A stretch of DNA of 48,195 bases from a virus (lineage: Duplodnaviria; Heunggongvirae; Uroviricota; Caudoviricetes): the IMG/VR virus record IMGVR_UViG_2519899780_000006. One strand, 5' to 3'. The position numbers and the translations under genes were made by a program. Shown here piece after piece: positions 25,087 through 48,195 of this stretch. A model generated the notes under the pieces. That model ran no database searches. It saw only the letters and a list, made by a program, of their open reading frames with translations, and was not told the DNA's origin. How positions within the stretch are numbered: position 1 is the stretch's first letter; the number at the start of each line of letters is the position of its first letter.

Positions 25087-25156
25087 CACTCGAATCTCCC
25101 GAATCAGTTTGCTAAAATCAAACACACTTTCTCCTTTGACTTTTCCAGAGTCAGGA

Positions 25157-25196
25157 AACACAAAACCCCGCTTGCAGCCAACAAACGGGGTTTTTA
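25157..25196. terminator. Bidirectional terminator-like hairpin between R and Rz
   Basis: ccccg...cgggg stem (25166-25190) with a T-run after it on the plus strand and a U-rich tract after it on the minus strand. Confidence 0.4.
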
Positions 25197-25284
25197 CTTT
25201 TATTCACTTAGTTTTTGTCAGTTCGCAGGATTTCGTGTTATCCGTCCGTGTGAGCAAACCGCATTTTTCAGCAAAATATTCTGC

Positions 25285-25818: not shown

Positions 25819-25860
25819 GGATATTTATCAGGATTTATCGGCAACAGATAACGAGCCAGC

Positions 25861-26667
25861 TTATATACGTCCTTTAAGATAAGTCAGTCCTGGATGAAAC
25901 CAGTAAGCCGGCACTTTTTTAAAGGGCGGATTATCAAAATCACGAAGAAGAGCCTCCCGCACAACTGCATCCTTGTCCGCACCACTGGCCAGCGCTTCAA
26001 TCTCAGCAGCTATCTGCAGATATCCCATGCAACGGCCAATGCGCTTCATCAGCCCCTGCTTTTTATTGTTCTTCAGGTAATCAATGGCAAATTCAATGAG
26101 CGCCTCACTATGCTGGTGCGATGGCGGTGTTAATTTCCCATTTTCTGAGATGGTTATTTTCCCGCCATCTCCGTATACAACAAAGGATGGCCGGTTACAC
26201 TCCCATTCCTGATCTTTATCAGGTGCAGACGCAATAAAATAACGTTTATTTCCTTCCTCTCCGGCACTTTTAACCGTAATGGAGTACTCAGACTGCAGAC
26301 AAGACGCCTCTTTTTCTGACCGCAGTGTTGACGGCGGCATCTTCAGAGAACCAGTAATTCTTCCCGGTAGCTTTCCTTTGTAGGTTATCAACACATCCTG
26401 CGCCTCTAAAATTATGGGGCGCTTTTCCGGCAACGGTTCGTTCCCTTCACATAACCCGGCAGCAACATCCATGAAAAACTGCTTCGCCTGCTTTTTCGCC
26501 TCAGCTTCGTAAAACTCCAGCGTGGCACCTTCAGTACGGTCAAGACTAATCGCCACATCTGGCAACAACAGTGACGGATACCCACCAATTTCCAGTGCCA
26601 CAGTAACAGTAATCTTATCCGGATAATTATTTATCCCTTTAACACCCAGTTCGTATTTTTTCTTCAT
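25861..26667 (-). CDS. Hypothetical 268-aa protein inserted between holin and endolysin
   Basis: Intact ORF with GGGGGAG RBS directly after the S stop; lower GC than flanks; no TM segment or signal peptide; no motif I recognise. Confidence 0.6.
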   Translation of the reverse strand: MKKKYELGVKGINNYPDKITVTVALEIGGYPSLLLPDVAISLDRTEGATLEFYEAEAKKQAKQFFMDVAAGLCEGNEPLPEKRPIILEAQDVLITYKGKLPGRITGSLKMPPSTLRSEKEASCLQSEYSITVKSAGEEGNKRYFIASAPDKDQEWECNRPSFVVYGDGGKITISENGKLTPPSHQHSEALIEFAIDYLKNNKKQGLMKRIGRCMGYLQIAAEIEALASGADKDAVVREALLRDFDNPPFKKVPAYWFHPGLTYLKGRI

Positions 26668-26671
26668 CGCT

Positions 26672-26887
26672 TTACTCCCCCCGCGCCGCCTTACGACGGT
26701 CCTCTCTGATTTTGAAATACAGGTTAGTCAGATATGTCAGCAGCCCAAACAGCAGACTCCCCAGCACGCCTATTGCCGCCCACTGAGACGGGGAAACCCT
26801 GTCCAGCAACTGCAGGAACCAGTAGCCCGTTCCCACCGCTGACGTGGTGTATGACACACCTGTTGTGATTTTTTCCATCTGGTACAT
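26672..26887 (-). CDS. S: Class II holin, phage 21 S21-type pinholin
   Basis: 71 aa from dual-start motif MYQM (ATG 26885-26887); [50 protein letters not shown] matches S21 as recalled. The ORF track extends it upstream to 26965. Confidence 0.85.
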
Positions 26888-26919
26888 ACCCCGTCTCCCG
26901 TTATCCGGAAGCTGACAAC

Positions 26920-26952
26920 AATAAAAAAAGCCACCAGTTAAGTACTGATGGC
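26920..26952 (-). terminator. Terminator-like hairpin upstream of S
   Basis: Imperfect 9-bp stem (26930-26952) followed on the minus strand by UUUUUUUAUUG. Confidence 0.35.
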
Positions 26953-27037
26953 TCTGATAACTCATGCAGGCATCTCAGACGACCCACTGACACTACCGGT
27001 GAGTTTAACGATACCTTCCATTTGACTGGCTCACTTT

Positions 27038-28891
27038 TTATGATGATGCCGGTGCATTTATCTCCAGCACCAGACTTTCTATCTCAACGCCATACGCTGC
27101 ATTTTTGGTAATATCCGTCAGCGTCAGCGCATTCAGCCCCAGTGTCAGACTGTCTTTTATGACCTGGAATGCCGGGCCAGCCACTCCATTCAGTTTCGGA
27201 GTAACCGTGGCACTGCCGGCGGTGAACACCAGCTCCAGCGTCTGCCAGTCGTTACTGTAATTCCCGAACTCGCCCAACTTTGTGTTTCCGGCTTTCTTGT
27301 GATGCATCAGATTCAGTTTGCCGTCTGTGGTCTGGGTGAAGAACGACATCAGGAACGGGTTACCAGTCCCGGTCATCGCCACGACGTCAGGTAACGCTAC
27401 ATCGGTATACAGATAAATTCCCAGACCGAACTGGTTGTTGGTCAGTGCGCCTGACAGTCGAAACTTACAGCTCAGTCTGCCACCCCGTGTCAGCAGGGAG
27501 ACTGCGTCATCCACCGGGCGCGTCAGGGACCAGGCTTTATTGCTCTGCTTGGTGATCTTAAATACACCATCTGACAACTGAATTCCGCCATTCTTAATGC
27601 TCCAGCCCTGCGCAGCAGCATCTCCGGCTGTCGGCAACAGGGAGATTGTGCGTACGGATGCATCTTCAGACGGCCCCGATGGCGTGTCGACGCCGGGCGA
27701 GGGTTTGATTTCCGGTGCCTTACCACTGATGAAGGCTGAGGTGCGCCCGGCTGCGTTCAGAATAGCGGTTGCCATACGATCCGGAATAATGCTCCTGCGC
27801 GCCCATGAACTGAAATGTGTCGGGCGGTTTGATGATACCTGGTTTCCATTCGTTCTCGATGCCGCACCGTAATATCCTGATGCCGGAATATCCGGATCTT
27901 CTGCCGGTGCGTTAGTGGCGGTATTGACGCCGTTACCGTCTGTCATGAAGGGCACAAAATAAACGCCCTCACTCTCCCTGTTTTTATACCCTCCGTACAC
28001 GGTGTCGTACTGGGTAGCGTATGTATTTTTCCAGTAATACGTCGTGTCACCACAAATCCACGGTACAACTGCAGCACTGCCGCCATGGCACTGCGCGTTA
28101 AATCCGGAAAGGTCAGTACGGAACTGCTTCAGCATGGCCGTGAACAGGTCCGGTTGCTGTGCGTAGGTGGCAGCGCTCATGTCAAATTCGCCCTGCATCC
28201 AGCACACCGCCAGCAACACATTTTTCGGGTTCTTCTGTAATGCAGCTTTAGTGCGCGCAATCAGGTCCTGATATAGCGGTTTACCCACACCCCAGCGTGC
28301 CGAATCCTGGCTGGCCCCCGCGTCCGCACTGAATGTCCCCTCCGCGCCCTGGGTGAATGCCGAACCACCACGACAGCATGGTACCAGCAGGATCCCAGCG
28401 TTATTCGGGATATACGGGAGCAGTTTTTTGGCAATATGTAAGCCCTGGCCGACACAGCCGTACTGCCCTTTGCTCAGGTCTGCCTTCGGATGATTCAGCG
28501 TACTCATATCCTGCACATCATGCAGACAGTGGTCAGCCGGGATGATGTCGTTATACGTACAACTCTCTCCCCCCGGAGTTACCGTGCTGCGGCGCGCCAG
28601 CTGTTTAATGCGCGGATCCGGAGCATCGTAAGAATCCGGTAACGGAAGCCCTTCACCGTAGGCCATGCCGTTGGACTGTCCGGCAAGCACAACCACGTAG
28701 AACCAGTCCGGCTCAGATGAAGGGCCGACCTGTGGATCTCCTTCAATAGCCACCGCCTGCATCAGTGTGTACGGCGTAATGGCAACCGGTCCGCCATATG
28801 GCTGCCAGCCCTCTTTCAGTTTGTGTGTCAGCTTTTCCGCAAGGTCTGACGGCGACGCCGCCCTGACAACATCATAGTGTTTAAATGCCAT
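27038..28891 (-). CDS. NanS-like sialate O-acetylesterase (SGNH hydrolase)
   Basis: 617 aa; GQSN motif (VLAGQSNGMAYG); occupies the slot between the tRNA cluster and S where Stx phages carry this esterase. Confidence 0.75.
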   Translation of the reverse strand: MAFKHYDVVRAASPSDLAEKLTHKLKEGWQPYGGPVAITPYTLMQAVAIEGDPQVGPSSEPDWFYVVVLAGQSNGMAYGEGLPLPDSYDAPDPRIKQLARRSTVTPGGESCTYNDIIPADHCLHDVQDMSTLNHPKADLSKGQYGCVGQGLHIAKKLLPYIPNNAGILLVPCCRGGSAFTQGAEGTFSADAGASQDSARWGVGKPLYQDLIARTKAALQKNPKNVLLAVCWMQGEFDMSAATYAQQPDLFTAMLKQFRTDLSGFNAQCHGGSAAVVPWICGDTTYYWKNTYATQYDTVYGGYKNRESEGVYFVPFMTDGNGVNTATNAPAEDPDIPASGYYGAASRTNGNQVSSNRPTHFSSWARRSIIPDRMATAILNAAGRTSAFISGKAPEIKPSPGVDTPSGPSEDASVRTISLLPTAGDAAAQGWSIKNGGIQLSDGVFKITKQSNKAWSLTRPVDDAVSLLTRGGRLSCKFRLSGALTNNQFGLGIYLYTDVALPDVVAMTGTGNPFLMSFFTQTTDGKLNLMHHKKAGNTKLGEFGNYSNDWQTLELVFTAGSATVTPKLNGVAGPAFQVIKDSLTLGLNALTLTDITKNAAYGVEIESLVLEINAPASS

Positions 28892-29044
28892 GAATCCTCC
28901 CGGCCGGGATAATATTGTGAGTAAAATGAGGAGCGGGCTGAAGTCCGGAAGTTACAGGACAATGGCAGAAGAGAGACAACAGCCCGCAATACGAAAAAGG
29001 CCGCGCTATTGCGCAGAGTGATTACTGTCGGATATTATTCGCCA

Positions 29045-29114
29045 GCTGAAATATTACTTCACGTTTTGTTGTTTATTCCTTGCCGCCCGCGTCTCCCAGC
29101 GCGGGCTTTTTTTT
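29045..29114 (+). ncRNA. Speculative small RNA of about 70 nt
   Basis: Possible promoter TTGCGC (29009-29014), 18-nt spacer, TATTAT (29033-29038), then the terminator above; G/U-rich body. Confidence 0.2.
29085..29114 (+). terminator. Plus-strand intrinsic terminator with no upstream plus-strand gene
   Basis: 7-bp GC stem gcccgcg / cgcgggc followed by TTTTTTTT (29107-29114). Confidence 0.45.
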
Positions 29115-29341
29115 GTCCATAAGAAAGCCCCTCCGGAGAGGGGCTGGAGAGTGGCGCTATGTGCCATTGCATGGTGCCGGGTGCCTCCCGGTGAATTCAG
29201 TACCAGCACCTGAATCCGCGATTATCCCATATACCTACTCGCTGATTGCCCCTCCGCACAGGGGGATTCACCATGCCAGTTTCTTTTAACAAACTCCCCG
29301 CAAAACAGACAACTGTCAACCGTCTGAATTGTGAGACATTT

Positions 29342-29367
29342 AAAAAAAAGGCCCGCAAAAGCGAGCC
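29342..29367 (-). terminator. Intrinsic terminator after the tRNA cluster
   Basis: Hairpin GGCUCGC UUUU GCGGGCC followed by an 8-U run on the minus strand. Confidence 0.45.
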
Positions 29368-29381
29368 AGGGAAAATAAGTG

Positions 29382-29458
29382 TGGCGCGTTGTACTGGATT
29401 CGAACCAGTGACCGATTGCTTAGAAGGCAATTGCTCTGTCCGGCTGAGCTAACAACGC
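29382..29458 (-). tRNA. argO: tRNA-Arg (anticodon UCU)
   Basis: 77-nt cloverleaf folded by hand: acceptor GCGTTGT/ACAACGC, D stem GCTC/GAGC, anticodon loop CUUCUAA, T loop TTCGAAT, 3' CCA encoded. Confidence 0.85.
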
Positions 29459-29474
29459 AGGATACAGATAATGA

Positions 29475-29548
29475 ACCGCCTTCGGGGACCCGAACTCCGC
29501 GCAACCAGCTTCGAAGGCTGGCGCTCTATCCTGATGAGCTAATGGCGG
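29475..29548 (-). tRNA. argN: tRNA-Arg (anticodon UCG), slightly imperfect
   Basis: About 74 nt; anticodon loop CUUCGAA; T loop TTCGGGT; one mismatch each in acceptor and T stems; no encoded CCA. Ends approximate. Confidence 0.6.
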
Positions 29549-29555
29549 TATGTGA

Positions 29556-29631
29556 TGGTGGCCCTTGCTGGATTTGAACCAGCGACCTGGCGATTATGAG
29601 TCGCTCGCTCTCACCACTGAGCTAAAGGGCC
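29556..29631 (-). tRNA. ileZ: tRNA-Ile2 (anticodon CAU), ileX/ileZ-like
   Basis: 76 nt reading GGCCCTTTAGCTCAGTGGTGAGAGCGAGCGACTCATAATCGC...CCACCA, close to E. coli ileX as recalled. Confidence 0.85.
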
Positions 29632-29680
29632 GGGAGCAGAATAATAATGGTGCGTAATTAATTCTGCAATCTCATCCGTT

Positions 29681-30730
29681 TCAAACGATTAAATCCTGAA
29701 CTTCCCTGACTGTCTGCTCAAAACGTCCTGTCTCCAGTTCAACGCCAATCGCACGACGCCCGAGCGCCAGTGCCGCTTTTACCGTTGAACCCGACCCCAT
29801 GAAAAAATCCGCAACCAGATCACCAGGACGACTACTTGCGCTGATTATCTGCTGCAGCATTTCTGCCGGTTTTTCGCACGGATGTTTCCCGGGATAGAAC
29901 TGCACCGGTTTATGTGTCCACACATCCGTGTACGGCACCTGCGCCGTCACACCAAAATACCGCCGCAGATGTTTATATTCACTCTGCAGCTCCGCATACT
30001 GTCGGTTCAGTGAAGTATACGTATCCACCAGCTGGTGGTGGGGCTTTTCCAGTTCCCCCCGCTGATGCTTCTCTTCTGCCACCCTGGCAAACAGTGCCTG
30101 TAATTTCAGATAATCGCTTTCGTTCGGCAACTGCCACTGACTGGCACTGAACCAGTGCGACACCATGTTTTTCTTTCCTGTGGCATCTGCAATCTGTTTT
30201 GCCGTTATCCCAAGAGCAGCACGCGCATCACGAAAGTAAGAAATCAGCGGGGCCATCACATGCTGTTTCAGTGCCCTGCCCTTCGCCTCATCGCCATCAT
30301 CTTTCGGACGATACGGCCCCTGATAATGTTCCGCGAACAGAATGCGTTCTGTGGCCGGAAAATACGCCCGCAGGCTTTCCTTGTTGCACCCGTTCCAGCG
30401 TCCGGACGGCTTCGCCCAGATAATATGGTTCAGCACACTGAAGCGTTCACGCATCATGATTTCGATATCAGATGCCAGGCGATGACCACAGAACAGGTAA
30501 AGACTTCCGGCAGGTTTCAGCACCCGCCAGAACTGCGCCAGACACTGGTCCAGCCACTTCAGGTAATCATCGTCGCCCTTCCACTGGTTATCCCAGCCCT
30601 CAGGCTTCACTTTAAAGTACGGCGGGTCCGTAACTATCAGGTCAACAGAATTTTCGGGTAACGACCGGATAAATTCCAGGCAGTCGGCGTTGATTAACTC
30701 ACAACTGGATATTTTTACAGTATTAAGCAT
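29681..30730 (-). CDS. DNA methyltransferase, beta-class N6A/N4C (DPPY family)
   Basis: 349 aa; motif IV LIVTDPPYF near the N-terminus and motif I DFFMGSGSTV near the C-terminus. Confidence 0.8.
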   Translation of the reverse strand: MLNTVKISSCELINADCLEFIRSLPENSVDLIVTDPPYFKVKPEGWDNQWKGDDDYLKWLDQCLAQFWRVLKPAGSLYLFCGHRLASDIEIMMRERFSVLNHIIWAKPSGRWNGCNKESLRAYFPATERILFAEHYQGPYRPKDDGDEAKGRALKQHVMAPLISYFRDARAALGITAKQIADATGKKNMVSHWFSASQWQLPNESDYLKLQALFARVAEEKHQRGELEKPHHQLVDTYTSLNRQYAELQSEYKHLRRYFGVTAQVPYTDVWTHKPVQFYPGKHPCEKPAEMLQQIISASSRPGDLVADFFMGSGSTVKAALALGRRAIGVELETGRFEQTVREVQDLIV

Positions 30731-30865
30731 GGATCATTAAGCCTGTCTCTGATAGGCTCATTCTGCTTTTGCGTAAAGCAGTGGGCCTGAGGTTTGCTTG
30801 TGAACCCAACGCATGAGCAGATGGCTGGTGGGTGCCCCTAACACCCACCAGCCGCCCATTTACCA

Positions 30866-30894
30866 CAAATAAAAAAGCCTTCACTGCGGAAGGC
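30866..30894 (-). terminator. Intrinsic terminator at the end of the small post-Q ORF
   Basis: Hairpin gccttc...gaaggc (30877-30894) followed on the minus strand by UUUUUUAUUU. Confidence 0.4.
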
Positions 30895-31078
30895 GTCTGT
30901 AACAACCGAACTGATAGTCTGCCAGACCCGCCATAACCAGCTGGGTCAGTATTAACTGGCAGCGTTCGCGTGAAAGGTAAGTATTCTGCGCAATCTCCCC
31001 GACTGTCGCCGGGTCGGTAACGCTTAATTCATTAAACACCACTCTGGCGGTTTCTGTCATATCCTGCTGTTTTAGCAT
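30881..31078 (-). CDS. Hypothetical small protein
   Basis: 65 aa from ATG 31076-31078 (MLKQQDMTETARVV...); lies between two terminators downstream of Q. The ORF track gives a longer version from 31165. Confidence 0.3.
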   Translation of the reverse strand: MLKQQDMTETARVVFNELSVTDPATVGEIAQNTYLSRERCQLILTQLVMAGLADYQFGCYRRLPQ

Positions 31079-31198
31079 GTCTTTTTCCCTTTTCCGGTTA
31101 ACGTGACACACCAATAACTCTTGTCGAAAAAGCCAGCAAGCTGAAAGACAGGTATTCACCGCCACCAGCGCGTTTACTGTACTGACGCGATTTCAGTC

Positions 31199-31223
31199 AT
31201 AAAAAACCCGCCAGGCGGCGGGG
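31199..31223 (-). terminator. Candidate tR' terminator downstream of Q
   Basis: Hairpin CCCGCC GCCU GGCGGG followed by UUUUUU on the minus strand, about 80 nt after the Q stop. Confidence 0.45.
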
Positions 31224-31271
31224 TGTAAAAAATCTTCTAACGTCAGGCATAAAACGCCCATCGTTAGAGCA

Positions 31272-31299
31272 AATTTACCACAGATTCGGGAAAAATCAA
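31272..31299 (-). promoter_or_regulatory. Candidate late promoter pR'
   Basis: On the minus strand TTGATT (31294-31299), 16-nt spacer, TAAATT (31272-31277), immediately after the Q stop and before the hairpin above. Confidence 0.3.
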
Positions 31300-31304
31300 C
31301 AACA

Positions 31305-32126
31305 CTATCGCGTTACCCTCTTTAACTGCCGCTCCGCCCATGCCTCTTCAATGTCAAACCGAACCACCAACGTATCGTAAAAGCGTTTCACTGATTTTTT
31401 CCACGTATCAAGCGTGATAGCACTCGTCACTTTGCATATGGCATTAAATGCCTCCGTTGATGGTAGTCTTTCACAGCCACGACCACCACAACGCTGGCAG
31501 TCTCTGATAACAGGCATACCACGTTTTACCGACTCTTCACGATGAATGGCGACACCACGCCCACGGCAATCCTTACAGGCGGTGGAAACCTCACCCTTTC
31601 CGCCACACTCCGGACAGGCAACTTTTACCACCTCCCTGACTTTTTTCCATTCTTCCCAGTAAGACGGATACACACCTTTCGTACACTTTGCCCATACCGG
31701 CGGCTTACCATCCGGATACTGGATCTTGTTTGTAAAAACCTCGCTTTCAATAAATTTTTTTCCGTGACAGCAGGAGCACTGTTTTTTGCTCGCCGCGCTA
31801 CGGGCATAATCTTCAAACGCATACGAAGCCATAATACGCATCACTGCCGGTTTTATTTCTGCCGGGAGTTTTCTTAACGCCGCCACGCGATCACACCGCC
31901 TGAGTGCATATTCTGTCAGCAATTCTGTTGCCCGCTCTCTGTCATTCATACTAATGCCCATTTTCCCAAGGAACGCAGAAAACCCCATCTCAGCCCGATT
32001 CTGTGTCATGCCCTGCGCGGCCATCACATCAGTGATACTCAGCGCATCTTTCGACGTTGAGGCCGATGCATCAGTCAGGCCGGGGGATTTTGGGGAGTAG
32101 TATTTCGGTAAATCTTCCAGTTTCAT
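31305..32126 (-). CDS. Q: Late antiterminator, Q-like
   Basis: 273 aa with several CxxC pairs; sits upstream of the pR'/tR' candidates, the tRNA cluster and the lysis genes. Confidence 0.65.
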   Translation of the reverse strand: MKLEDLPKYYSPKSPGLTDASASTSKDALSITDVMAAQGMTQNRAEMGFSAFLGKMGISMNDRERATELLTEYALRRCDRVAALRKLPAEIKPAVMRIMASYAFEDYARSAASKKQCSCCHGKKFIESEVFTNKIQYPDGKPPVWAKCTKGVYPSYWEEWKKVREVVKVACPECGGKGEVSTACKDCRGRGVAIHREESVKRGMPVIRDCQRCGGRGCERLPSTEAFNAICKVTSAITLDTWKKSVKRFYDTLVVRFDIEEAWAERQLKRVTR

Positions 32127-32497
32127 TTTTTGACCTGCCCTTCAAGCATTATGGGGTAAATCTTCACCCCCAGACGTCCACCAGATACTGGCTGACCACG
32201 AACGATATTGATTTCATCAAACTGCTCATCGTCCATTAACACTCCCGCATGCGTCAGCGCATCCAGCGGTGCTTTCAGGATATTGTCCAGGTCGCGACGA
32301 CGCTTATCCGGTGGCTCTGCAATCACCTTTATCGCCAGCCTTCCGGACAGGCTTAATTTCAGCCGCTGCTGGCGAACAATAAGCGCCACAGCCCGGCGAT
32401 AACGCTTTCCCTCCTCCGAGATAAAATATGTGCTGCCACGGCGTCGCCAGTAAGTGTTCACCGTCGGCGGGTAAGGTAAAACCAAATCTATGAGCAT
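32123..32497 (-). CDS. rusA: Holliday junction resolvase RusA
   Basis: 124 aa, MLIDLVLPYPPTVNTYW...DLDNILKAPLDALTHAGVLMDDEQ, RusA family as recalled; directly upstream of Q. Confidence 0.85.
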   Translation of the reverse strand: MLIDLVLPYPPTVNTYWRRRGSTYFISEEGKRYRRAVALIVRQQRLKLSLSGRLAIKVIAEPPDKRRRDLDNILKAPLDALTHAGVLMDDEQFDEINIVRGQPVSGGRLGVKIYPIMLEGQVKK

Positions 32498-32509
32498 CAG
32501 TCACCTCTT

Positions 32510-33559
32510 TTACCCAAGCACGCCAGTTGCAAAGGCGTGATCAAGAAAACGAAAAATTAAATCAACCTGAGAACCATGCTTTTCTTCGAACGCCAGCGGA
32601 TCCGCATGAAGCTCGTTGTGATGCTCCCGACACAGCGGTAGCGTGAAAATATCGTGAGATTTTGTCCCCATTCCGCCCTGACCATGACCAATCAGGTGAT
32701 GGGGATCGTCGGCTGGCTTACCACAACACGCACACGGCTGTGTCTTCACCCAGCGTGTGTATTTCTCGTTAACCCAGCGGCGACGTTTAGGTCGTTTCAT
32801 GAAAGATTCCGGAGACTCAGGATCAACGGCAATGCTGACCACCGTCTTTTCCTGTGGTGGGTTCTGTTGCTGGTGGGCGTGAGGCAGCGGCGCAAGATTT
32901 TTTGTGCGCTGTTTCAGTATGCTGGTGGCGGTCTGCTCTCCCGGTACGATGTCGCTTTCACGGTACATTGAGCGGATTTTTTCCGCACGCAACCCCAGCG
33001 AACGACGTAATACCGCTTCCGGTAGCGCGTCCGCCACCTGATTGCGGACCGCCCACCAGGATAATTCAGCCAGCGATAATTCCCGTTCCTGCGAGCCATT
33101 CATTGCATGGCGTATGACGTCAATCATCCATGCAGACAGGTTTTGGTGAGCAAGTTGCCCGAGTGATTCGGATGTCTGGTCGCGCAGCTGGTTGTCGCAG
33201 TGCCAGCACAACACCATTGCGCCGGTACCATAACGGTGAATGACGGTTTCACTGTGGTGATAATCACCGTGTGGCCACTGGCAGGATTTAACATGGCGCA
33301 GTAACCAGTCAGACAATGCGCCAGCGCCACCAGCAGCACGAATCACTCGTTCGTCGCTGAAAAATGGCAGTAATGATTTATCCTCCGCCAGCGGCTGGCG
33401 AACGGCAGGAACGACCCCGGACGGCAGATTACGCATGCTTTTCGGTTCCGGCTCCACCAGTACCCGGGTATTGTGGAATACCGGCATGGATTCACGGCCC
33501 GGCTTAACGATCACCAGCCCGAGTTCCGGTACCAGAACAGGTCGAAGTAATACCCGCAC
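32510..33559 (-). CDS. Prophage protein with C-terminal Cys/His (HNH-like) motif, possibly DUF968/YdfU-like
   Basis: 349 aa; C-terminal CACCGKPADDPHHLIGHGQGG...CREHHNELH. Confidence 0.55.
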   Translation of the reverse strand: MRVLLRPVLVPELGLVIVKPGRESMPVFHNTRVLVEPEPKSMRNLPSGVVPAVRQPLAEDKSLLPFFSDERVIRAAGGAGALSDWLLRHVKSCQWPHGDYHHSETVIHRYGTGAMVLCWHCDNQLRDQTSESLGQLAHQNLSAWMIDVIRHAMNGSQERELSLAELSWWAVRNQVADALPEAVLRRSLGLRAEKIRSMYRESDIVPGEQTATSILKQRTKNLAPLPHAHQQQNPPQEKTVVSIAVDPESPESFMKRPKRRRWVNEKYTRWVKTQPCACCGKPADDPHHLIGHGQGGMGTKSHDIFTLPLCREHHNELHADPLAFEEKHGSQVDLIFRFLDHAFATGVLG

Positions 33560-33560
33560 G

Positions 33561-33839
33561 TTACCTCCAGATGCGTTGCTGGAATGTGCGGGACGGACGC
33601 GGTGGTCGTTCGGAGTAAGGAAGCCTGACGGAGATTATCCAGTGACGATAATCGAGGCTGAGGGCTTTCTTAATCTCGTATCCGTGTCTGCGGTAGCACT
33701 GAATTAGCCACTCGGCCTGTTCTTCAGTGCATGGGGGATGCTGGAACCAGTCAGATTTGAAAGTGCGGGAACGCCGCCCGTGCCTGCTGGCAGGGGCGGC
33801 AGAGTTATCCGAATTGTAAAATTTGGTATCGTGCGCCAT
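33561..33839 (-). CDS. Hypothetical small protein
   Basis: 92 aa from internal ATG 33837-33839 (MAHDTKFYNSDNS...); between hok and the 349-aa gene. The ORF track version runs to 33968. Confidence 0.35.
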   Translation of the reverse strand: MAHDTKFYNSDNSAAPASRHGRRSRTFKSDWFQHPPCTEEQAEWLIQCYRRHGYEIKKALSLDYRHWIISVRLPYSERPPRPSRTFQQRIWR

Positions 33840-34006
33840 CTGTTTTCTCTGCTGGCGCAGCAGGTGCCAGTTGTTCAGGCTGACGGATGGATTGTAAACC
33901 AGAACGACCAGAAAAAACAAAACCCGCCGAAGCGGGTTAAGTGCGGGTGCGTTGAGGATGCCTGACACATCAGCGGTGGCGAGGGATTTCTCCCCCGCCG
34001 GGTCTC

Positions 34007-34162
34007 TTACTCCTCAGGTTCGTAAGCTGTGAAGACAGCGACCTCCGTCTGGCCGGTTCGGATTCGTACCTCGCAGAGGTCTTTCCTCGTTACCAGTGCC
34101 GTCACTATGACGGTTAAACAGATGACGATCAGGGCGATTAACATCGCCTTTTGCTGCTTCAT
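34007..34162 (-). CDS. hokD: Hok/Gef-family type I toxin
   Basis: 51-aa ORF MKQQKAMLIALIVICLTVIVTALVTRKDLCEVRIRTGQTEVAVFTAYEPEE, hand-translated; absent from the ORF track (under 60 aa); matches HokD/RelF as recalled. Confidence 0.85.
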   Translation of the reverse strand: MKQQKAMLIALIVICLTVIVTALVTRKDLCEVRIRTGQTEVAVFTAYEPEE

Positions 34163-34420
34163 AGCCTGCTTCTCCTTGACCTTTCGGTCCGTAAGAGGCT
34201 AATCTCTATGTGTCGCATAGATATGGCCTCAGATTAATGTTAAGCGTCTTGCAGGACGCGTAATGTTAACTGGGGCTTTTCTCTATCTGCCTTTTGGTGT
34301 TCATGCCTGAGACAGATAGCCTCAAGCACCCGCAGTCATTCTACTTAACTAAGATTTCCCCGCAAACCGTTTTTGTCCGGCACAGTAAATATCCAACTAA
34401 ACCAATGGCGTTCGCTGTAT

Positions 34421-34600
34421 TTACCGCCAGTATTCAATGCACATGACCGCCATGAACACCCCTAAAAAAAGGGCATTTATATATCCAAATATTAATATCA
34501 AAACATCAACTTTTTCCATATACCTTGCTGTGAAGATGATGGGCATACATGATACGAACAACCAGAACGCAACAAACAAAAACTGCAATGCGTTTTTCAT
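34421..34600 (-). CDS. Hypothetical 59-aa two-TM membrane protein
   Basis: MKNALQFLFVAFWLFVSCMPIIFTARYMEKVDVLILIFGYINALFLGVFMAVMCIEYWR; AGGAGG 5-6 nt upstream of ATG 34598-34600; inside a markedly AT-rich islet. Confidence 0.45.
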   Translation of the reverse strand: MKNALQFLFVAFWLFVSCMPIIFTARYMEKVDVLILIFGYINALFLGVFMAVMCIEYWR

Positions 34601-34829
34601 TATTCCTCCTACAATCAATGTGCAATTACATTTAAACACACCTCAATTTGGCCGGACATATAAATATCTAAACCAGAAAAAATCACTTACATAGCGTTAC
34701 AAACTCTTTAGTCTAAATATTCATCGTAAAACATTCCCCATACTTATCAGCCCGTTCTGCGCCAGGTAGCTCATTGCCTTATCTGGGAATCTGTAATCAG
34801 GTTTCCGGATGCTGGTGGATTTTCGCGTT

Positions 34830-41351: not shown

Positions 41352-41852
41352 ATGAAAAGAAAATCCCTGTCAGAGATCGACCTGCAAGCCGCCCAGAGAC
41401 TGAAAGAAATCTGGACGGCGAAAAAAAATCAACTAGGGTTAACCCAAGAGCGTGCGGCAGAAATTCTGGGATTTTCGACACAGGGAGCTGTAAGCCATTA
41501 TCTAAATGGTCAGACACCTTTAAATCTTGAGGCTGTTATCAAGTTCGCAGGGTTGCTGCAAGTTCCTCCCGAGTCAATCAGACCAGATATGGCCGAGTTG
41601 TTACAAATTGTAAGGATGTATCCCCAAGAATCTGGGGAGGACAATGTTGTCACTATATCTGCAGATATGGAACAATCGGAAAACGAACTTCCGTTTAATA
41701 TAGACCCCATGGAGCGGGATTTGCTCCAGACGTTCAGGGCTTTCCCCAAAGAAGATAAAGAGAAAATGCTTAAGGAAATGAAGGAGAAAAAAGAATCAAT
41801 TGAAGAAATCGTTGCGCGATGGCTAGCTGCGCAAAAGGGTCGTCGCGCCTAA
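41352..41852 (+). CDS. HTH repressor in the CI position (PaaR2/RacR-like)
   Basis: 166 aa; HTH LTQERAAEILGFSTQGAVSHYLNG; no obvious S24 peptidase domain; first gene of a three-gene operon. Confidence 0.6.
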   Translation: MKRKSLSEIDLQAAQRLKEIWTAKKNQLGLTQERAAEILGFSTQGAVSHYLNGQTPLNLEAVIKFAGLLQVPPESIRPDMAELLQIVRMYPQESGEDNVVTISADMEQSENELPFNIDPMERDLLQTFRAFPKEDKEKMLKEMKEKKESIEEIVARWLAAQKGRRA

Positions 41853-41869: not shown

Positions 41870-42061
41870 ATGAGTACAGCCCTTTCCCCGATAATTTCTG
41901 AATTTGAAACAGTCGAACAAGAAAACAGCTATAACGAATGGTTGCGAACCAAAGTGGCAGCAAGCCTCTCAGATCCCCGTCCTGCAATTCCACATGACGA
42001 AGTAATGGCTGAAATGGAAAACCTTATTGCTCAATTAGCTGCAACGAACAGGAGTGAGTAA
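41870..42061 (+). CDS. Antitoxin, PaaA2-like
   Basis: 63 aa acidic protein immediately upstream of and overlapping the ParE-like toxin gene. Confidence 0.65.
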   Translation: MSTALSPIISEFETVEQENSYNEWLRTKVAASLSDPRPAIPHDEVMAEMENLIAQLAATNRSE

Positions 42062-42351
42062 TGCTGCCCATTTTATGGCTACCTTCTGCACGTGATGATT
42101 TACGTCAGATCGTAGCCTATATTGCTAAGGAAAACCCTCCCGCTGCACGTAGACTAAAAATACGCATTGAAACATCAGTTTTGTCACTTACTGAACACCC
42201 TTATCTGTACCCACCGAGCGAAAGAGTTCCAAGTCTTCGTGAGATAGTGACTCATCCTAACTACATAATACTTTACCGAGTAACAGCATCTAACATCGAG
42301 ATCGTAAATGTAGTTCACTCACGAAGACAGTATCCAAACAAAACCTGTTAA
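42061..42351 (+). CDS. ParE/RelE-superfamily toxin (ParE2-like)
   Basis: 96 aa; EHPYLYPPSERVPSLREIVTHPNYIILYRV matches the ParE family as recalled; ATGA-coupled to the antitoxin. Confidence 0.7.
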   Translation: MLPILWLPSARDDLRQIVAYIAKENPPAARRLKIRIETSVLSLTEHPYLYPPSERVPSLREIVTHPNYIILYRVTASNIEIVNVVHSRRQYPNKTC

Positions 42352-42365: not shown

Positions 42366-42388
42366 AACCACCTTCGGGTGGTTTTTTT
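42366..42388 (+). terminator. Intrinsic terminator of the repressor-TA operon
   Basis: Hairpin aaccacc ttcg ggtggtt followed by TTTTT. Confidence 0.5.
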
Positions 42389-42620
42389 CTTGCCACGATA
42401 ATAGCACTGCTATTTACATAATTAAATAGTAGTGGTATTGTTCATTCATCAACCCACCCCGCCCCACAGAACGCCAGGCAATACTTCGAGTTACCCGGCA
42501 GTGGTCAGGGGTTAAGTAGCCAGCCCGAGGCGTAAGAACATGACGGCAGGGTTCAACTTTAATAACTATGCAGCAGGTTTTTGTTCCGCTACCCCGGCGT
42601 TAAGGGGAAATGAGGTCAGC

Positions 42621-42773
42621 ATGGATACTATCGATCTTGGCAACAACGAATCTCTGGTATGCGGTGTGTTCCCTAACCAGGACGGCACCTTCACCGCGAT
42701 GACGTATACCAAAAGTAAAACGTTTAAAACCGCAGCTGGCGCGCATCGCTGGTTAGCAAGAAACACTGACTGA
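42621..42773 (+). CDS. Small prophage protein (YdaF-like)
   Basis: 50 aa MDTIDLGNNESLVCGVFPNQDGTFTAMTYTKSKTF with GAGG 5 nt upstream of ATG 42621; the ORF track gives a longer version from 42540. Confidence 0.4.
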   Translation: MDTIDLGNNESLVCGVFPNQDGTFTAMTYTKSKTFKTAAGAHRWLARNTD

Positions 42774-43123
42774 TGAGGTTGACGATGGAATTTAAAGATT
42801 TACCTCCTTCAATCCAGGAGATTGCAGCACACACACTTCGTCATCGTCTGAACGAACTTGAATTGGAATCGGTAACAAAAAAAGACACTGATAATATGGC
42901 TCGTAATGTGCGCGATGCGTTTACTGGGCTGTTTTCAGATACAGCTTTAAATATCCATGGCACAGAGGATACAGCAAAACAATTTGCAGAAAAAGAAGTG
43001 GAAGATCCCAGCTCAAAGAGCCAGAAACAGCCAAACAACCATGAAATTAACGAACTGCTTCTGGCAACAGGCTTCATAAATATTAACGAATATGAACGCC
43101 GTAAAAAAATGTTATCTGATTAA
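42773..43123 (+). CDS. Hypothetical protein
   Basis: 116-aa ORF; likelier start at MEFKDL (42785) with GAGG upstream. Confidence 0.4.
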   Translation: MRLTMEFKDLPPSIQEIAAHTLRHRLNELELESVTKKDTDNMARNVRDAFTGLFSDTALNIHGTEDTAKQFAEKEVEDPSSKSQKQPNNHEINELLLATGFININEYERRKKMLSD

Positions 43124-43306
43124 TCCATCAAGATATCTTTTTAGCATCAGCGTTTCTACGTTATTAAAACCATCAGATTTTAACATAGCTTCGATTCGCT
43201 GATTTAAATTGCCAACTAACTGTTGATACTGAGTAGATGGAAGCATGTGTACCAGCTCCTTGAGAACACAATAACATGCACCAAGTTTTAACTCCTGCTC
43301 TGACAT
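43112..43306 (-). CDS. Hypothetical small protein
   Basis: 64 aa from MSEQELKLGACYC (ATG 43304-43306) with GGAGGA RBS; the ORF track gives an 88-aa version. Confidence 0.4.
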   Translation of the reverse strand: MSEQELKLGACYCVLKELVHMLPSTQYQQLVGNLNQRIEAMLKSDGFNNVETLMLKRYLDGLIR

Positions 43307-43872
43307 TTTATCCTCCATTGAGGTTACTGGTTGAGAATGGAGACCTCTCGTGACAGCGTGTGGTCGTGCGCCGGACACGGATAAGAATCCGGCACTGACA
43401 GTTTACTGAAAGGATATTTCCCTGAAAAGTCAGACCATAACGCGAAAGCGCACGGCGAGGTAGCTGGTTCATAGATAGCCTGTCGTTAAATTTTCGTCGA
43501 CCGTGCGCTTCCGGTTGTGGCAATCCGCGAAATGGCGCGGCGGTAAGTATGGCGGGGTTATTCCTTCCCCCGTTGAGGACACCGGGTTGTCAGGTTGGCC
43601 ATACGCTTAAGTGACAACCCCGCTGCAACGCCCTCTGTTATCAATTTTCTGGTGACGTTTGGCGGTATCAGTTTTACTCCGTGACTGCTCTGCCGCCCTT
43701 TTTAAAGTGAATTTTGTGATGTGGTGAATGCGGCTGAGCGCACGCGGAACAGTTAAAACCAAAAACAGTGTTATGGGTGGATTCTCTGTATCCGGCGTTA
43801 ATTGTTAACTGGTTAACGTCACCTGGAGGCACCAGGCACCGCATCACAAAATTCATTGTTGAGGACGCGATA

Positions 43873-44061
43873 ATGGAAACGTTATTACCAAACGTTAATA
43901 CGTCTGAAGGTTGTTTTGATATTGGTGTTCTGCTCAGTAACCGGGAGTTTACTGAAGATGCCATTAATATGAGGAAATATGAGCCTTATCTGCTCAATGA
44001 TAATTCCATACTTTCCCGAATTGCTCTTCTTGAACTTGGTATTTTCGGAGAGCGTCAATGA
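43873..44061 (+). CDS. Hypothetical small protein
   Basis: 62 aa METLLPNVNTSEGCFDIGVLL; GAGGA upstream; ATGA-coupled to the next ORF; low GC. Confidence 0.35.
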   Translation: METLLPNVNTSEGCFDIGVLLSNREFTEDAINMRKYEPYLLNDNSILSRIALLELGIFGERQ

Positions 44062-44246
44062 CTTCAGCATTTGCACTGATGATGACGGTTTTTCTTATAA
44101 CGGGTGAATCACAGAATGTGATTACCGGAATTTATGCCAGTAAAGAATCCTGCCTCCAGGCAAGAGACGAGCAAAAAATTTCTGGTGAATGCCTCCCGGT
44201 AAAAAAAGTATCGCTGTACCTGAATAACGAAACACCGGCTGGATAA
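44058..44246 (+). CDS. Hypothetical small protein with hydrophobic N-terminus
   Basis: 62 aa MTSAFALMMTVFLITGESQNV; possible signal peptide or TM helix. Confidence 0.35.
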   Translation: MTSAFALMMTVFLITGESQNVITGIYASKESCLQARDEQKISGECLPVKKVSLYLNNETPAG

Positions 44247-44338: not shown

Positions 44339-46777
44339 ATGAGCACTGATAAAGAAGAATTTGCGCTATATTGCGAAGCAAAAAATGACAAAGTCAGAAA
44401 ACGTCTGGGAATTAAAGGTGGTTTTTACTGGACTACAGCAAAAAAATTATCTGTTGCCATCTCCCGCTGCATTACCGCAATGGATGACAACGATTATGAT
44501 GAAGACGACTTTAAAAAACCCGTTCGCGTCCATTTACCCGTTGTGAATGACCTTCCACCTGAAGGCGTGTTTGATACCGAATTCTGCAACCGATACGAAA
44601 AAGGCGGGGAAGATGGCATTACAATGGTATTTATCGCGCCCTCTCCCTCCGTGCAGGAGAAACCAGCCAGTACTGACAATACCAACGTCAACGGCGAAGA
44701 CATGACGGAGATTGAGGAGAATATGCTCCTGCCGGTTTCTGGTCAGGAGCTGCCCATTCGCTGGCTTGCGCAACACAGCAGCGAAAAACCAGTAACGCAC
44801 GTTGCACGGGAAGAACTTCAGGCATTACATATAGCACGGGCGGAAGAACTGCCGGCTGTTACTGCCCTGGCCATTTCTCACAAAACAAAGCTGCTCGACC
44901 CGCTGGAGATTCGCGACCTTCACAAACTGGTACGCGACACTGACAAAGTTTTCCCTAATCCCGGTAATTCAGACCTGGGACTGATAACTGCTTTTTTCGA
45001 GGCATACCTGGACGCTGATTACACTGATCGGGGTCTGCTGACAAAAGAGTGGATGAAAGGAAATCGTGTTTCGCGTATCACCCGTACGGCTTCCGGTGCA
45101 AATGCCGGTGGCGGGAACAAAACCGATCGCAATCCGAATTTAGTACACACCTTCGATGCGCTGGATGTGGAGATTGCAGCAGCCACACTTCCGATGGATT
45201 TTAATATTTATGAAATTCCGGGCAGCGTTTATCGTCGCGCAAAAGAAATCGTCCTGAAAAAAGAAAGTCCGTTCAGGGAATGGTCCGCAGCACTTCGCGC
45301 AACCCCTGGTATCCTGGACTATTCCCGCGCAGCTATTTTTGCACTTATCCGAAGCGCCCACCCTGAGTTTTATCACTACCCGGGGCGCCTTCAGGGGTAT
45401 ATCAATGCCAACCTGACAGAAACTGATCACGAGAATCCCACAGCTGAAACGCTCATGGCTGCCCGGCATACACCGGAAAAAGATATCCTGGAAGAAATTA
45501 ACGGCGGACTGGCTGCTGAGTGCAAAACAGAAGAAGAAAAAAATGATGAAGATAACCCGCAACCATCTGGCGCAATGGCAGATGAACAGGCAACGGCTGA
45601 AACAATGGCAGCGGATACAGTTGAACATCATCAGGACCCGCAGCCGCTGGATGACAAGTCACAGGTAAAAGTTACCGCTGACGAAGTAAACAAAATTATG
45701 CAGGCAGCCAATATCAGCCAGCCTGACGCCGATAAGTTGCTTGCTGCCTCTCGCGGAGAATTTGTTGCAGGGATTAGCGCCCCGAATGATCCGAAATGGG
45801 TAAAGGGGATTGAAACCCGCGATTCTGTAAACCAGAACCAGCAAGAATCGGAACAGAACGACCAGAAAGCGGAACAAAACAGCCCAAATGCGTTACAAAA
45901 CGAGCCAGAAACGAAACAACCTGAACCAGTAGTGCAACAGGAACCGGAAAAGATCTGCACAGCCTGCGGTCAGACCGGCGGCGGCAACTGCCCTGATTGT
46001 GGCGCGGTGATGGGCGACGCAACATACCAGGAAACATTCGATGAAGAGAATCAGGTTGAAGTTCAGGAAAATGATCCGAAGGAAATGGAAGGCGCTGAAC
46101 ATCCACACAAGGAGAATGCTGGCAGCGCTCAGGATCACGCCAGCGATAGTGAAACTGGCGAGACGGCAGATCCCTTAATTACGGTGAACGGTCATCACGT
46201 TATCACATCCACCAGCAGGACGTGTGACCATCTAATGATCGACCTTGAAACCATGGGAAAAAATCCTGATGCCCCGATCATCTCAATAGGTGCAATATTT
46301 TTCGATCCGCAAACCGGAGATATGGGACCGGAATTTAGTAAGACTATCGATCTGGAAACTGCTGGCGGGGTCATTGATCGGGACACCATTAAATGGTGGC
46401 TTAAGCAATCACGCGAAGCGCAATCTGCCATTATGACCGATGAAATCCCGTTAGATGATGCACTGTTACAATTGCGGGAATTTATCGACGAAAACTCCGG
46501 TGAATTTTTTGTTCAGGTCTGGGGAAATGGAGCCAACTTCGACAACACGATTTTGCGCCGTTCATACGAACGGCAGGGGCTCCCCTGCCCGTGGCGTTAC
46601 TACAACGATCGAGATGTACGCACAATCGTTGAGCTGGGGAAAGCCATAGACTTCGATGCCAGAACGGCTATTCCATTCGAAGGTGAGCGCCATAATGCAC
46701 TTGATGACGCCCGTTACCAGGCAAAATACGTTTCAGTTATCTGGCAAAAACTGATCCCGAGTCAGGCTGATTTTTAA
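44339..46777 (+). CDS. RecE-like protein with C-terminal DEDDh 3'-5' exonuclease domain
   Basis: 812 aa; central region resembles Rac RecE N-terminal part as recalled ([31 protein letters not shown]); C-terminus has DnaQ-like motifs [29 protein letters not shown]. Confidence 0.65.
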
Positions 46778-46838: not shown

Positions 46839-47108
46839 ATGAGCGAACAGTACCTGATAACGCTCGACGAGTGGAAACCAAAACGGTTCAGTCTCCCAAT
46901 AACAAACACTACCCTGGTGAAATACGGAAAACTAGGATACATCGTTCCAAGACCACAAAAAATTCGTGGGCGTTGGCTGATAGATCGCCGAGCAGTATTT
47001 GTTGGGCCTGGTGAAACGGGAATTGCGCCGGAAATTCATACTGGCGATGATGATGCACTGAAGGAGATTTTAACTCATGTCACCGAGGCCACGAAAAAAC
47101 AGCACTGA
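46839..47108 (+). CDS. xis: Excisionase-like protein
   Basis: 89 aa from MSEQYLITLDEWKPKRF (ATG 46839); immediately upstream of and overlapping int. The ORF track starts at an upstream GTG. Confidence 0.55.
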   Translation: MSEQYLITLDEWKPKRFSLPITNTTLVKYGKLGYIVPRPQKIRGRWLIDRRAVFVGPGETGIAPEIHTGDDDALKEILTHVTEATKKQH

Positions 47109-48195
47109 CGTAGCCGGTCTTTACGAAAAGTTTGATCGCAGAACTGGCAGAGTTTACTACCAGTATAAAAATCCTGTGACTGGAAAATTTCACGGACTCG
47201 GAACAGACAAAGGTAAGGCAGAAAAAATCGCTTCCACAGCCAATCAGCGAATAGCTGCAGCAGAAGCTGAATATTTCATGCGCAAAATTGATGAAAGTCC
47301 GTCAGCAACAAAACGTCGGGGTATCAGATTAAAGGCATGGGTTGATCGATATCTGAAAATACAGGACACGCGACTGAAAAATGGAGATATTGCAGCTACA
47401 ACTCACAAAGAAAAAACTCGAATGGCTGCATACCTGGTTTCCCGTCTGGGAAACCACCCATTGAAAGAACTGGAAGTAAGAGACTTTGCATTAATACTGG
47501 ATGAGTGGCTGGATAAAGACATGGTCAGCACAGCGAGAGTAAATCGTGGATTATGGGTTGATATTTATAAAGAAGCACAGCATGCAGGGGAAGTTCCTCC
47601 TGGATGGAATCCTCCGGAGGCTACCCGTAAACCGATCCCTAAAGTAACCAGAGCCAGGCTCACCATGGAAGACTGGCAAAAAATTTACAATGCAACGCCT
47701 GAAAAACACTTTATCCGTAACGCAATGCTTCTTGCGATTGTTACTGGTCAGCGCCGTGATGACATTTGCCACATGCGTTTTTCAGATGTGTGGAACGAAC
47801 ACTTGCATATCACCCAGGGAAAAACCGGAATGCGTCTGGCGTTACCGCTTACACTACGCTGTGATGCCATTGGGATAACGTTAAAAGAAGTTATTGATGG
47901 GTGCCGAGACAGAATATTAAGTCCATATCTAATCCATAGTCGGCACCAGAAACAACCGAAGCCGATGAGTAAAGACAACCTGAGCGACTACTTTGCCAAA
48001 GCACGGGATCTGGCTGGGATAATTCCACCAGCAGGAAAAACTCCGCCAACATTTCATGAACAACGCTCTCTATCAGAACGGCTGTACCGTGCACAGGGTA
48101 TCGATACAAAAACATTACTAGGACATAAAGTCCAGGCAACCACCGATCGCTATAACGATACTCGAGGTCAGGAATGGGTTAAGCTGGTTATTTGA
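47077..48195 (+). CDS. int: Tyrosine integrase
   Basis: 372 aa; C-terminal catalytic-type residues (HEQRSL, LLGH, DRYNDTRG); stop codon is the last three bases of the window. Confidence 0.85.
   Translation: MSPRPRKNSTDVAGLYEKFDRRTGRVYYQYKNPVTGKFHGLGTDKGKAEKIASTANQRIAAAEAEYFMRKIDESPSATKRRGIRLKAWVDRYLKIQDTRLKNGDIAATTHKEKTRMAAYLVSRLGNHPLKELEVRDFALILDEWLDKDMVSTARVNRGLWVDIYKEAQHAGEVPPGWNPPEATRKPIPKVTRARLTMEDWQKIYNATPEKHFIRNAMLLAIVTGQRRDDICHMRFSDVWNEHLHITQGKTGMRLALPLTLRCDAIGITLKEVIDGCRDRILSPYLIHSRHQKQPKPMSKDNLSDYFAKARDLAGIIPPAGKTPPTFHEQRSLSERLYRAQGIDTKTLLGHKVQATTDRYNDTRGQEWVKLVI

Follow-up and report, generated by a model that had tools for sequence, protein, structure and literature searches.

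A widespread RecE variant of Escherichia coli prophages with an exchanged nuclease domain

The window analysed here is a stretch of 48 195 nt of DNA from a virus of the class Caudoviricetes (IMG/VR record IMGVR_UViG_2519899780_000006); over its entire length it shares 99.95% identity with a lambdoid prophage located beside potC in NZ_CP064387.1. We studied a gene close to its right end (positions 44339–46777) that encodes an 812-aa protein composed, in this order, of a RecE-type N-terminal module, an acidic disordered tether and a DEDDh nuclease domain. On the evidence of sequence, the protein is a RecE with a swapped nuclease domain: it lacks the PD-(D/E)XK nuclease and an adjacent recT gene, and has instead a DEDDh domain of the type that a separate gene encodes in Erf–SSB–exo–Abc2 modules. 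We explain the gene, with moderate confidence, as encoding a lytic-operon 3′–5′ DNA exonuclease that is carried on a RecE N-terminal module and acts without a phage annealase.

The DNA of the gene is a 100% match to that encoding WP_000102130.1 in E. coli O104:H4 and other genomes. The NCBI Prokaryotic Genome Annotation Pipeline (PGAP) names this gene ‘exonuclease’; other names used at NCBI often read ‘3′–5′ exoribonuclease’. The fusion is common and has been annotated in databases already, so it is not new as a sequence observation.

The RecE-type N-terminal module

A BLASTP comparison with exonuclease VIII of the Rac prophage (RecE, b1350 of E. coli K-12) aligned residues 58–615 of the window protein with RecE residues 50–592 at 58% identity, with blocks of ∼90% identity around residues 118–262. 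Pfam family PF06630 (Exonuc_VIII) matched residues 57–189 (E-value 2.7e-33; 116 bits against a cut-off of 25). Both results bear out the original prediction, made from the DNA letters without database searches, that the N-terminal region is RecE-like. The NCBIfam equivalog model NF007259 (PRK09709) aligned with residues 1–615 only, which corresponds to model positions 1–603 of 877; the score of 904.7 bits is below the curated cut-off of 1269, so the protein falls outside the full-length exonuclease VIII/RecE proteins as delimited by this model. PF12684, the family of PD-(D/E)XK nucleases, had no match in the 812-aa protein, whereas RecE itself matches it at residues 615–850. Since the homology stops at RecE residue 592 and the Pfam match to the nuclease starts at residue 615, the exchange point falls within the linker that directly precedes the folded nuclease.

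Rac RecE and the window protein share the N-terminal region with its PF06630 match, a zinc-ribbon motif and an acidic linker. The genes also share their location, late in the early-left operon and near xis–int. The difference is in the parts that follow: RecE ends in the PD-(D/E)XK domain, a 5′–3′ double-stranded DNA exonuclease, and its gene is followed by recT, whereas the window gene has the DEDDh domain in this place, and recT, ralR and rcbA are absent.

An AlphaFold2 model built with a 95-sequence alignment showed the N-terminal module (residues 1–390) to be confidently folded, with values of the predicted local distance difference test (pLDDT) mostly above 90. The head of this module (residues ∼1–260) is of the RecE type, and its helical middle (∼270–390) is common to RecE and to proteins of the YdfE/Tritos type described below. 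The tether is mostly disordered between residues ∼393 and 624, with pLDDT below 50 at residues 393–445, 488–536 and 562–624; its net charge is −34, and the full 812-aa protein is acidic. The zinc-ribbon-like motif in the tether has its counterpart in RecE from residue 517. We considered this zinc ribbon as a family-wide feature and rejected it as such, the motif being present in just 6 of 49 cluster representatives. Inspection of the sequence ahead of M633, a possible internal start, gave no convincing ribosome-binding site for a separately translated nuclease.

The DEDDh nuclease domain

Pfam family PF16473 (Rv2179c-like 3′–5′ exoribonuclease) matched residues 631–802 over nearly the whole profile (positions 2–177 of 177; E-value 1e-67; 227.7 bits against a cut-off of 27). 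The three motifs of the domain are MID635LE637T, NFD735 and H785NALD790, with the putative catalytic residues D635, E637, D735, H785 and D790. In an alignment of 37 sequences (the window protein and 36 stand-alone homologues) the first four of these residues are invariant, and at least 90% of the sequences have D790. The catalytic residues align with D7, D119, H186 and D191 of the T4 exonuclease DexA (DexA residues from PMC12153337).

The AlphaFold2 model has pLDDT above 90 over residues 630–808. A Foldseek search of this domain against the PDB ranked T4 DexA first (E-value 5e-10), followed by RNase T and Orn/REXO2; for DexA, RNase T and Orn the probability was 1.0, and template modelling (TM) scores normalised by target were in the range of 0.63–0.74, as is proper for the RNase H-like α/β fold. 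In a search of the PDB with an alignment profile, DexA (8KEL/8KEN) was again first with an E-value of 3e-22, far ahead of DnaQ and Orn (2.7e-5 for the next match); Rv2179c was not retrieved in this search at E-values up to 0.01. The DEDDh motifs that had been proposed for the C-terminus are thus confirmed, with an intact pentad, and the C-terminal region, whose failure to fold as a DEDDh domain would have spoken against the proposal, is modelled as such a domain.

A metal-dependent 3′–5′ exonuclease activity is the most likely prediction for the domain. Judging from family membership, its polarity should be 3′–5′, opposite to that of the RecE nuclease, and its substrate is probably DNA.

Three known systems are close enough for comparison. 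T4 DexA has the same DEDDh fold as the window domain and the same catalytic residues (D, E, D, H and D); it differs in being a stand-alone protein of 227 aa without a RecE-type N-terminal module, and the identity of the two domains in the structural alignment is 20–22%. Kang et al. (Nucleic Acids Research 2025, PMC12153337) solved the structure of DexA and defined as ‘HREX’ its stand-alone E. coli homologue EcD, which also differs from the window protein by absence of the RecE-type module (its length, estimated from relatives, is probably ∼190 aa). The closest natural relative of the C-terminal domain is the stand-alone DnaQ-type exonuclease of phages mEp235 (gp30) and epsilon34, 58% identical across the whole DEDDh domain and likewise encoded in a lambdoid early-left operon close to xis–int. 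This exonuclease gene is located beside erf, between the genes for SSB and Abc2; the 182-aa mEp235 protein therefore has an annealase and an anti-RecBCD partner, and the window gene has neither.

Absence of an annealase partner

An adjacent gene for a single-strand annealing protein (RecT, Bet, Erf or Sak), expected for a two-component recombinase, was not found; the early-left operon is devoid of annealase, SSB and anti-RecBCD genes. PGAP annotated no annealase in the whole 48-kb prophage, in which RusA is the sole recognisable recombination protein. The small ORFs (open reading frames) at 42540–44246 matched only DUF1391, DicB, DUF1482 and PHROGs of unknown function, with no annealase family in Pfam or PHROGs. 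Searches of the window by tblastn with RecT, Erf, SSB and Abc2 produced nothing better than an E-value of 0.39. The earlier statement that no RecT- or Bet-like gene is evident between the exonuclease gene and xis therefore holds, and so does its extension to the small neighbouring ORFs, where an annealase homologue could have overturned it.

The same picture was observed in related loci, in which we scanned ORFs of 130–420 aa within 8 kb upstream of the exonuclease gene. For same-strand ORFs of 29 fused loci, the complete list of 15 Pfam families had no annealase; for both strands of these loci, none was among the commonest 25 of 44 Pfam families (85 clusters of upstream ORFs). A phmmer search with RecT and Erf on ORFs upstream of the 29 fused genes retrieved nothing. 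As a positive control, the same seeds detected Erf in 5 of 50 stand-alone loci and SSB in 7 of 50. Neither an annealase nor Gam or Abc2 is annotated in the whole genomes of phages Tritos and HannyBb; in PPompW and 640R1, the annotation between the immunity region and int likewise includes no annealase.

Distribution, mosaic structure and selection

Of the 5426 complete E. coli genomes searched, 1229 contain at least 80% of the exact gene. The DEDDh module is present in 4051 of these genomes (∼75%), in up to seven copies per genome and mostly at 95% identity or higher. A HMMER search over 1.8 billion cluster representatives yielded 11 737 relatives. Among the long ones, at least 12 clusters (formed at 50% identity) combine the RecE-type N-terminal module with a DEDDh domain and ∼16 combine it with a PD-(D/E)XK domain, whereas in ∼18 the module comes without a recognisable nuclease. 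Such a variety of partners characterises the fusion as a recurrent modular swap rather than a single event. Stand-alone DEDDh proteins of 180–200 aa, with 45–53% identity, are abundant.

A scan of one genome per species detected 25 full fusions, 4 variants with a YdfE head and 50 stand-alone genes. The 25 fusions span more than 12 genera of Enterobacteriaceae (Enterobacter, Citrobacter, Kluyvera, Pluralibacter, Phytobacter, Kosakonia, Leclercia, Atlantibacter, Dryocola, Scandinavium and others), and the fused architecture is kept in many genera at 30–55% identity.

The gene is a mosaic. From nt 1326 (residue 442) onwards it has ∼96% DNA identity to genes with a different head that occur in PPompW phages, Tritos, HannyBb and mEp460. 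In comparison with phage 640R1, the rate of synonymous substitution (dS) was 0.33 in the N-terminal module and 0.017 in the DEDDh domain, and such unequal values also indicate mosaicism. The ratio of non-synonymous to synonymous rates (dN/dS) was 0.10–0.12 in the N-terminal module, 0.38–0.47 in the tether, where selection is relaxed, and 0.14–0.28 in the DEDDh domain. Values well below 1 in the N-terminal module and in the nuclease imply that both folded parts are under purifying selection. Tritos and HannyBb are plaque-forming phages that carry the exonuclease as a core early gene.

The ydfE gene of the K-12 prophage Qin and the gene for the 823-aa ‘exonuclease VIII’ of Tritos share with the window gene the operon position dicB–ydfD–exo–xis–int. 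The Tritos protein is near-identical to the window protein over the part encoded from the junction at residue 442 on, the DEDDh domain included; in both YdfE and the Tritos protein the N-terminal head (∼1–260) is of a separate, unrelated type. Qin YdfE was tried as a relative of the window N-terminus and rejected, as BLASTP found no similarity. It is a truncated head of the Tritos type: residues 1–256 of K-12 YdfE share 99% identity with the Tritos head, and an IS2 insertion interrupts the K-12 gene (loci L005, 5079–5999, and L006, 5641–8112). As a result of this insertion, K-12 is left without a DexA-like gene.

Chi sites and the Rec-less class of lambdoid phages

The window contains 15 Chi octamers (5 on the plus strand and 10 on the minus strand), where its base composition would predict ∼1.7. 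In the window, in Tritos (11 sites) and in HannyBb (7), Chi is the commonest among the 168 octamers of its composition. The sites in the window form a cluster at 24944–34811, with further ones at 40718, 46209 and 48025; 7 of the 10 Chi sites on the virion top strand are located at 24.9–33.3 kb, in the lysis–Q–nin region beside the terminase/cos end, all seven in the correct orientation. Such a clustering of oriented sites towards the cos-proximal right end matches the description of Rec-less lambdoid phages in PMC12315714. The site at 46209 falls within the exonuclease gene itself, in the linker (Table 1). Tritos (27079) and HannyBb (26330) also have one Chi site each within the exonuclease gene which, by its position, is probably the equivalent one.

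Zheng, Casjens, Davidson, Amundsen and Smith (Genome Research 2025, PMC12315714) report that about one-fifth of lambdoid phages have no Rec module, are enriched in Chi and depend on host RecBCD. The window phage fits this Rec-less, Chi-rich class. As the missing annealase is found across the Rec-less phage type, it is not a peculiarity of the exonuclease gene. The paper also mentions that lambdoid Rec modules may include DnaQ-type 3′–5′ nucleases, that sporadic genes for DnaQ-type nucleases adjoin int and are not counted as Rec-module members, and that ‘RecE-2’ proteins are RecE relatives without a nuclease domain. The latter two descriptions fit pieces of the window protein and of its relatives; a fused RecE-type/DnaQ protein is neither described nor analysed further in the accessible text of the paper.

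Genomic neighbourhood

Coordinates of the gene, its parts and the neighbouring features are given in Table 1. The gene order dicF–dicB–ydfD–exo–xis–int is conserved, and dicB–ydfD are located upstream of the exonuclease gene also in Qin, Tritos, PPompW and 640R1. The presence of DicF upstream of dicB identifies the operon as an early-left operon of the Qin dicBF type. Between relBE and the exonuclease gene we found DUF1391, a truncated ORF, DicF, dicB and the DUF1482/ydfD-like gene, all proteins being shorter than 120 aa; the gap between the exonuclease gene and xis is 61 nt. A scan for promoters and terminators detected no promoter-like site directly upstream of the exonuclease gene.

Table 1. 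Positions of the exonuclease gene, its parts and neighbouring features in the window
Feature	Position	Strand	Evidence
Whole gene, 812-aa modular exonuclease	44339..46777 (stop codon included)	+	ORF list; Pfam PF06630 and PF16473
Folded N-terminal module, residues 1–390	44339..45508	+	
Span homologous to Rac RecE (residues 58–615 versus RecE 50–592)	44510..46183	+	BLASTP, 58% identity
Acidic, mostly disordered tether, residues 391–629	45509..46225	+	AlphaFold2 pLDDT; net charge −34
CxxC-x8-CxxC zinc-ribbon-like motif, C540/C543/C552/C555	45956..46003	+	Sequence; AlphaFold2 pLDDT ∼79
Predicted DEDDh (DnaQ-like, DexA/Rv2179c-like) 3′–5′ exonuclease domain, residues 630–812	46226..46774	+	PF16473; PDB profile search; Foldseek
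Chi octamer GCTGGTGG at the RecE-type/DEDDh junction, in the linker	46209..46216	-	Pattern count
DicF small RNA	43647..43698	+	Rfam RF00039, 76.7 bits, full length
dicB	43873..44061	+	Pfam DicB, E-value 2.8e-36; PGAP
DUF1482/ydfD-like gene, directly upstream of the exonuclease gene	44058..44246	+	Pfam DUF1482, E-value 2.9e-15; PGAP
Excisionase gene (xis)	46839..47108	+	PGAP; Pfam Exc
Integrase gene	47077..48195	+	PGAP; prophage end beside potC
RusA Holliday-junction resolvase gene, nin region	32123..32497	-	PGAP

Several other features of the region were recorded. A relB/relE pair (41870–42061 and 42061–42351, plus strand) follows a repressor-like helix-turn-helix gene at 41352–41852. A strong terminator-like hairpin (42366–42383) and a promoter-like site (42413–42441) are situated ahead of the dicBF-type operon. 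The match of a 116-aa ORF at 42773–43123 (plus strand) to PHROG 2151 is confined to the first half of this family (positions 1–101 of 212); PGAP annotates 42785–42935 as a truncated pseudogene, and the ORF is probably what is left of an early gene. The rusA gene is adjoined by a gene for a DUF968/YdfU protein (32510–33559, minus strand), called an HNH endonuclease in the annotation of HannyBb. Three tRNA genes (Arg, Arg and Ile; ∼29381–29630, minus strand) are annotated in the matching record upstream of the late region. In other genera, related prophages (loci L039–L100) have early-left regions with ORFs for a Mrr-type restriction endonuclease, DUF4435 and NA-iREase1 (NACHT-associated inactive restriction endonuclease), as well as KwaB-like ORFs and ORFs with a RelA/SpoT domain; such ORFs may be defence cargo located near the immunity region.

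Possible function of the fused protein

As the last gene of the early-left (dicF–dicB–ydfD) operon before xis–int, the exonuclease gene is probably expressed on induction and not in the lysogen. The explanation that we favour, a DNA exonuclease of the lytic operon, could work as follows. On induction, as synteny suggests, the exonuclease would be expressed from the early-left operon together with dicF, dicB and ydfD. By the mechanism of its family, the DEDDh domain would remove nucleotides from 3′ ends with the use of two metal ions. The flexible acidic linker would tether the nuclease to the RecE-type module, and the latter, as we conjecture, would supply targeting. Homologous recombination would be left to host RecBCD/RecA acting via Chi, plus phage RusA. 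Our best guess is that the exonuclease would process 3′-ended DNA at ends or flaps in lytic replication or recombination; this physiological role is proposed from the family, the nearest relatives and synteny.

Several points weigh against this explanation. The RecE N-terminal region is described in reviews as ‘of unknown function’ (PMC11611040), and searches with the fold of the N-terminal module against the PDB and BFVD gave no functional hint, so its targeting role is conjectural. The Pfam family of the nuclease is named after an RNase (Rv2179c), and the substrate may be RNA. The homologue EcD is reported to act in anti-phage defence and not in recombination (PMC12153337). The promoter scan is compatible with both shared and separate expression of the gene. 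As stated in PMC12315714, 3′–5′ exonucleases usually inhibit homologous recombination; the same source finds no gene of unknown function to be universal in the early-left regions of Rec-less phages and, if so, the exonuclease gene cannot be essential for the Rec-less lifestyle.

A more specific version of the lytic-exonuclease explanation is tentative, and we would not call it likely. The RecE N-terminal module could be an autonomous adaptor, indifferent to the nuclease that it carries, which would bring any such nuclease to one shared target, for instance a DNA end or a host repair protein; the DEDDh version would trim ends (e.g. 3′ overhangs) so that RecBCD could load and reach Chi. The blunting of 3′ overhangs for RecBCD loading is speculation, although consistent with the data. 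If this adaptor version were true, the protein would be a phage-encoded helper of RecBCD-dependent growth, outside the annealase pathway, and it would offer the first functional handle on this 590-residue part of RecE.

The explanation ranked second, which we consider unlikely, is an anti-phage exclusion nuclease of the HREX type: a prophage defence gene whose DEDDh product would degrade the hydroxymethylcytosine DNA of superinfecting T-even phages. Kang et al. report that EcD digests T4 DNA, which contains 5-hydroxymethylcytosine (5hmC), and not unmodified DNA, that it gives E. coli protection against T4, and that bacterial DexA homologues come most often from Escherichia (PMC12153337). DexA, as shown above, is the closest solved structure to the window domain, and for DicB, a product of this operon, a protective effect against phage infection has been reported (PMC6832061). 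However, the C-terminal domain is 37% identical to EcD-like stand-alone genes versus 58% to the exonuclease of the mEp235 Rec module. W152 and D169 of DexA, both reported to be needed for activity on T4/5hmC DNA, correspond in the alignment to Y755 and A769 and so appear not to be conserved. Moreover, the gene is part of a lytic early-left operon and has no promoter-like site of its own, and plaque-forming phages such as Tritos and HannyBb carry the exonuclease as a core early gene. PADLOC, with a library dated 2023 that predates HREX, recognised neither the exonuclease nor its small neighbours. It is for the points on identity, residues, operon and PADLOC that defence is placed second.

The possibility that EcD is itself the C-terminal domain of the window protein was considered and rejected: the EcD primers specify a product with a MIDTET… start and a …TIPETYD end, and related stand-alone genes of 189–196 aa in viral contigs are only 37% identical to the window domain. 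The EcD-like set in these comparisons consists of relatives recovered via the primer sequence given in PMC12153337, not of EcD itself. In viral contigs L010, L015, L025, L026, L028 and L031, EcD-like genes with a MIDTETLG start (189–196 aa) accompany an integrase gene and a large ORF for a putative P4-type primase. This suggests that the EcD-like genes are cargo of P4-like phage satellites, a typical place for defence genes.

An exoribonuclease similar to Rv2179c, Orn or RNase T, which would trim 3′ ends of transcripts, small RNAs or oligoribonucleotides, is quite unlikely in our estimate. The PF16473 domain is named a 3′–5′ exoribonuclease domain, a name that NCBI often uses for the protein as well; RNase T, Orn and REXO2 are all Foldseek matches at probability 1.0, and the position of DexA W152 is occupied by Tyr in REXO2, as in the window protein (PMC12153337 supplement). 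Still, the DNA exonuclease DexA is by far the best match in both sequence and structure (3e-22 versus 2.7e-5 for the next one), and Rv2179c stayed unretrieved at E-values up to 0.01. The closest relatives of the domain are located among the DNA recombination genes erf, ssb and abc2, and its N-terminal partner module is otherwise found, in RecE, on a DNA exonuclease.

We find it highly unlikely that the protein is one half of a cryptic two-component recombinase, for which the N-terminal module, some small protein that lacks annotation or another prophage would provide the annealase. E. coli often has several lambdoid prophages, the module reaches seven copies per genome, and the N-terminal region contributes something to recombination according to 2012 work cited in PMC11611040. 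Against this, the neighbouring ORFs are all below 120 aa and match non-annealase families, and the scans of the 29 related loci revealed no annealase family. Besides, a 3′–5′ nuclease leaves 5′ tails, while known exonuclease–annealase pairs use 3′ tails.

That the gene is a decaying RecE leftover without present function after the loss of recT is hardly credible: frameshifted or truncated copies do exist (e.g. PPompW_0030, the K-12 Qin ydfE pseudogene and copies in loci L041, L086 and L100), but the frame of the window gene is intact with all catalytic residues present, the two folded parts have dN/dS values well below 1, many genera retain the architecture at 30–55% identity, and the gene is carried by plaque-forming phages.

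Significance

The window gene represents a widespread, annotated RecE variant with an exchanged nuclease, and its main appeal is that it offers a natural experiment on what the RecE N-terminus does. RecET is a standard tool of genome engineering, yet the N-terminal two-thirds of RecE have no assigned role, and full-length RecE behaves unlike its nuclease domain alone. The repeated joining of the module to nucleases of opposite polarity, with the DEDDh form always without an annealase, suggests that it serves some purpose by itself, unconnected with 5′–3′ resection and RecT. The exonuclease gene is also one of the commonest E. coli prophage genes, with enterohaemorrhagic E. coli (EHEC) and O104:H4 strains among its carriers. 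Given that ∼75% of genomes carry the module, a real role in lytic growth, inter-prophage recombination or exclusion would bear on the evolution of pathogens rich in Shiga toxin (Stx) phages.

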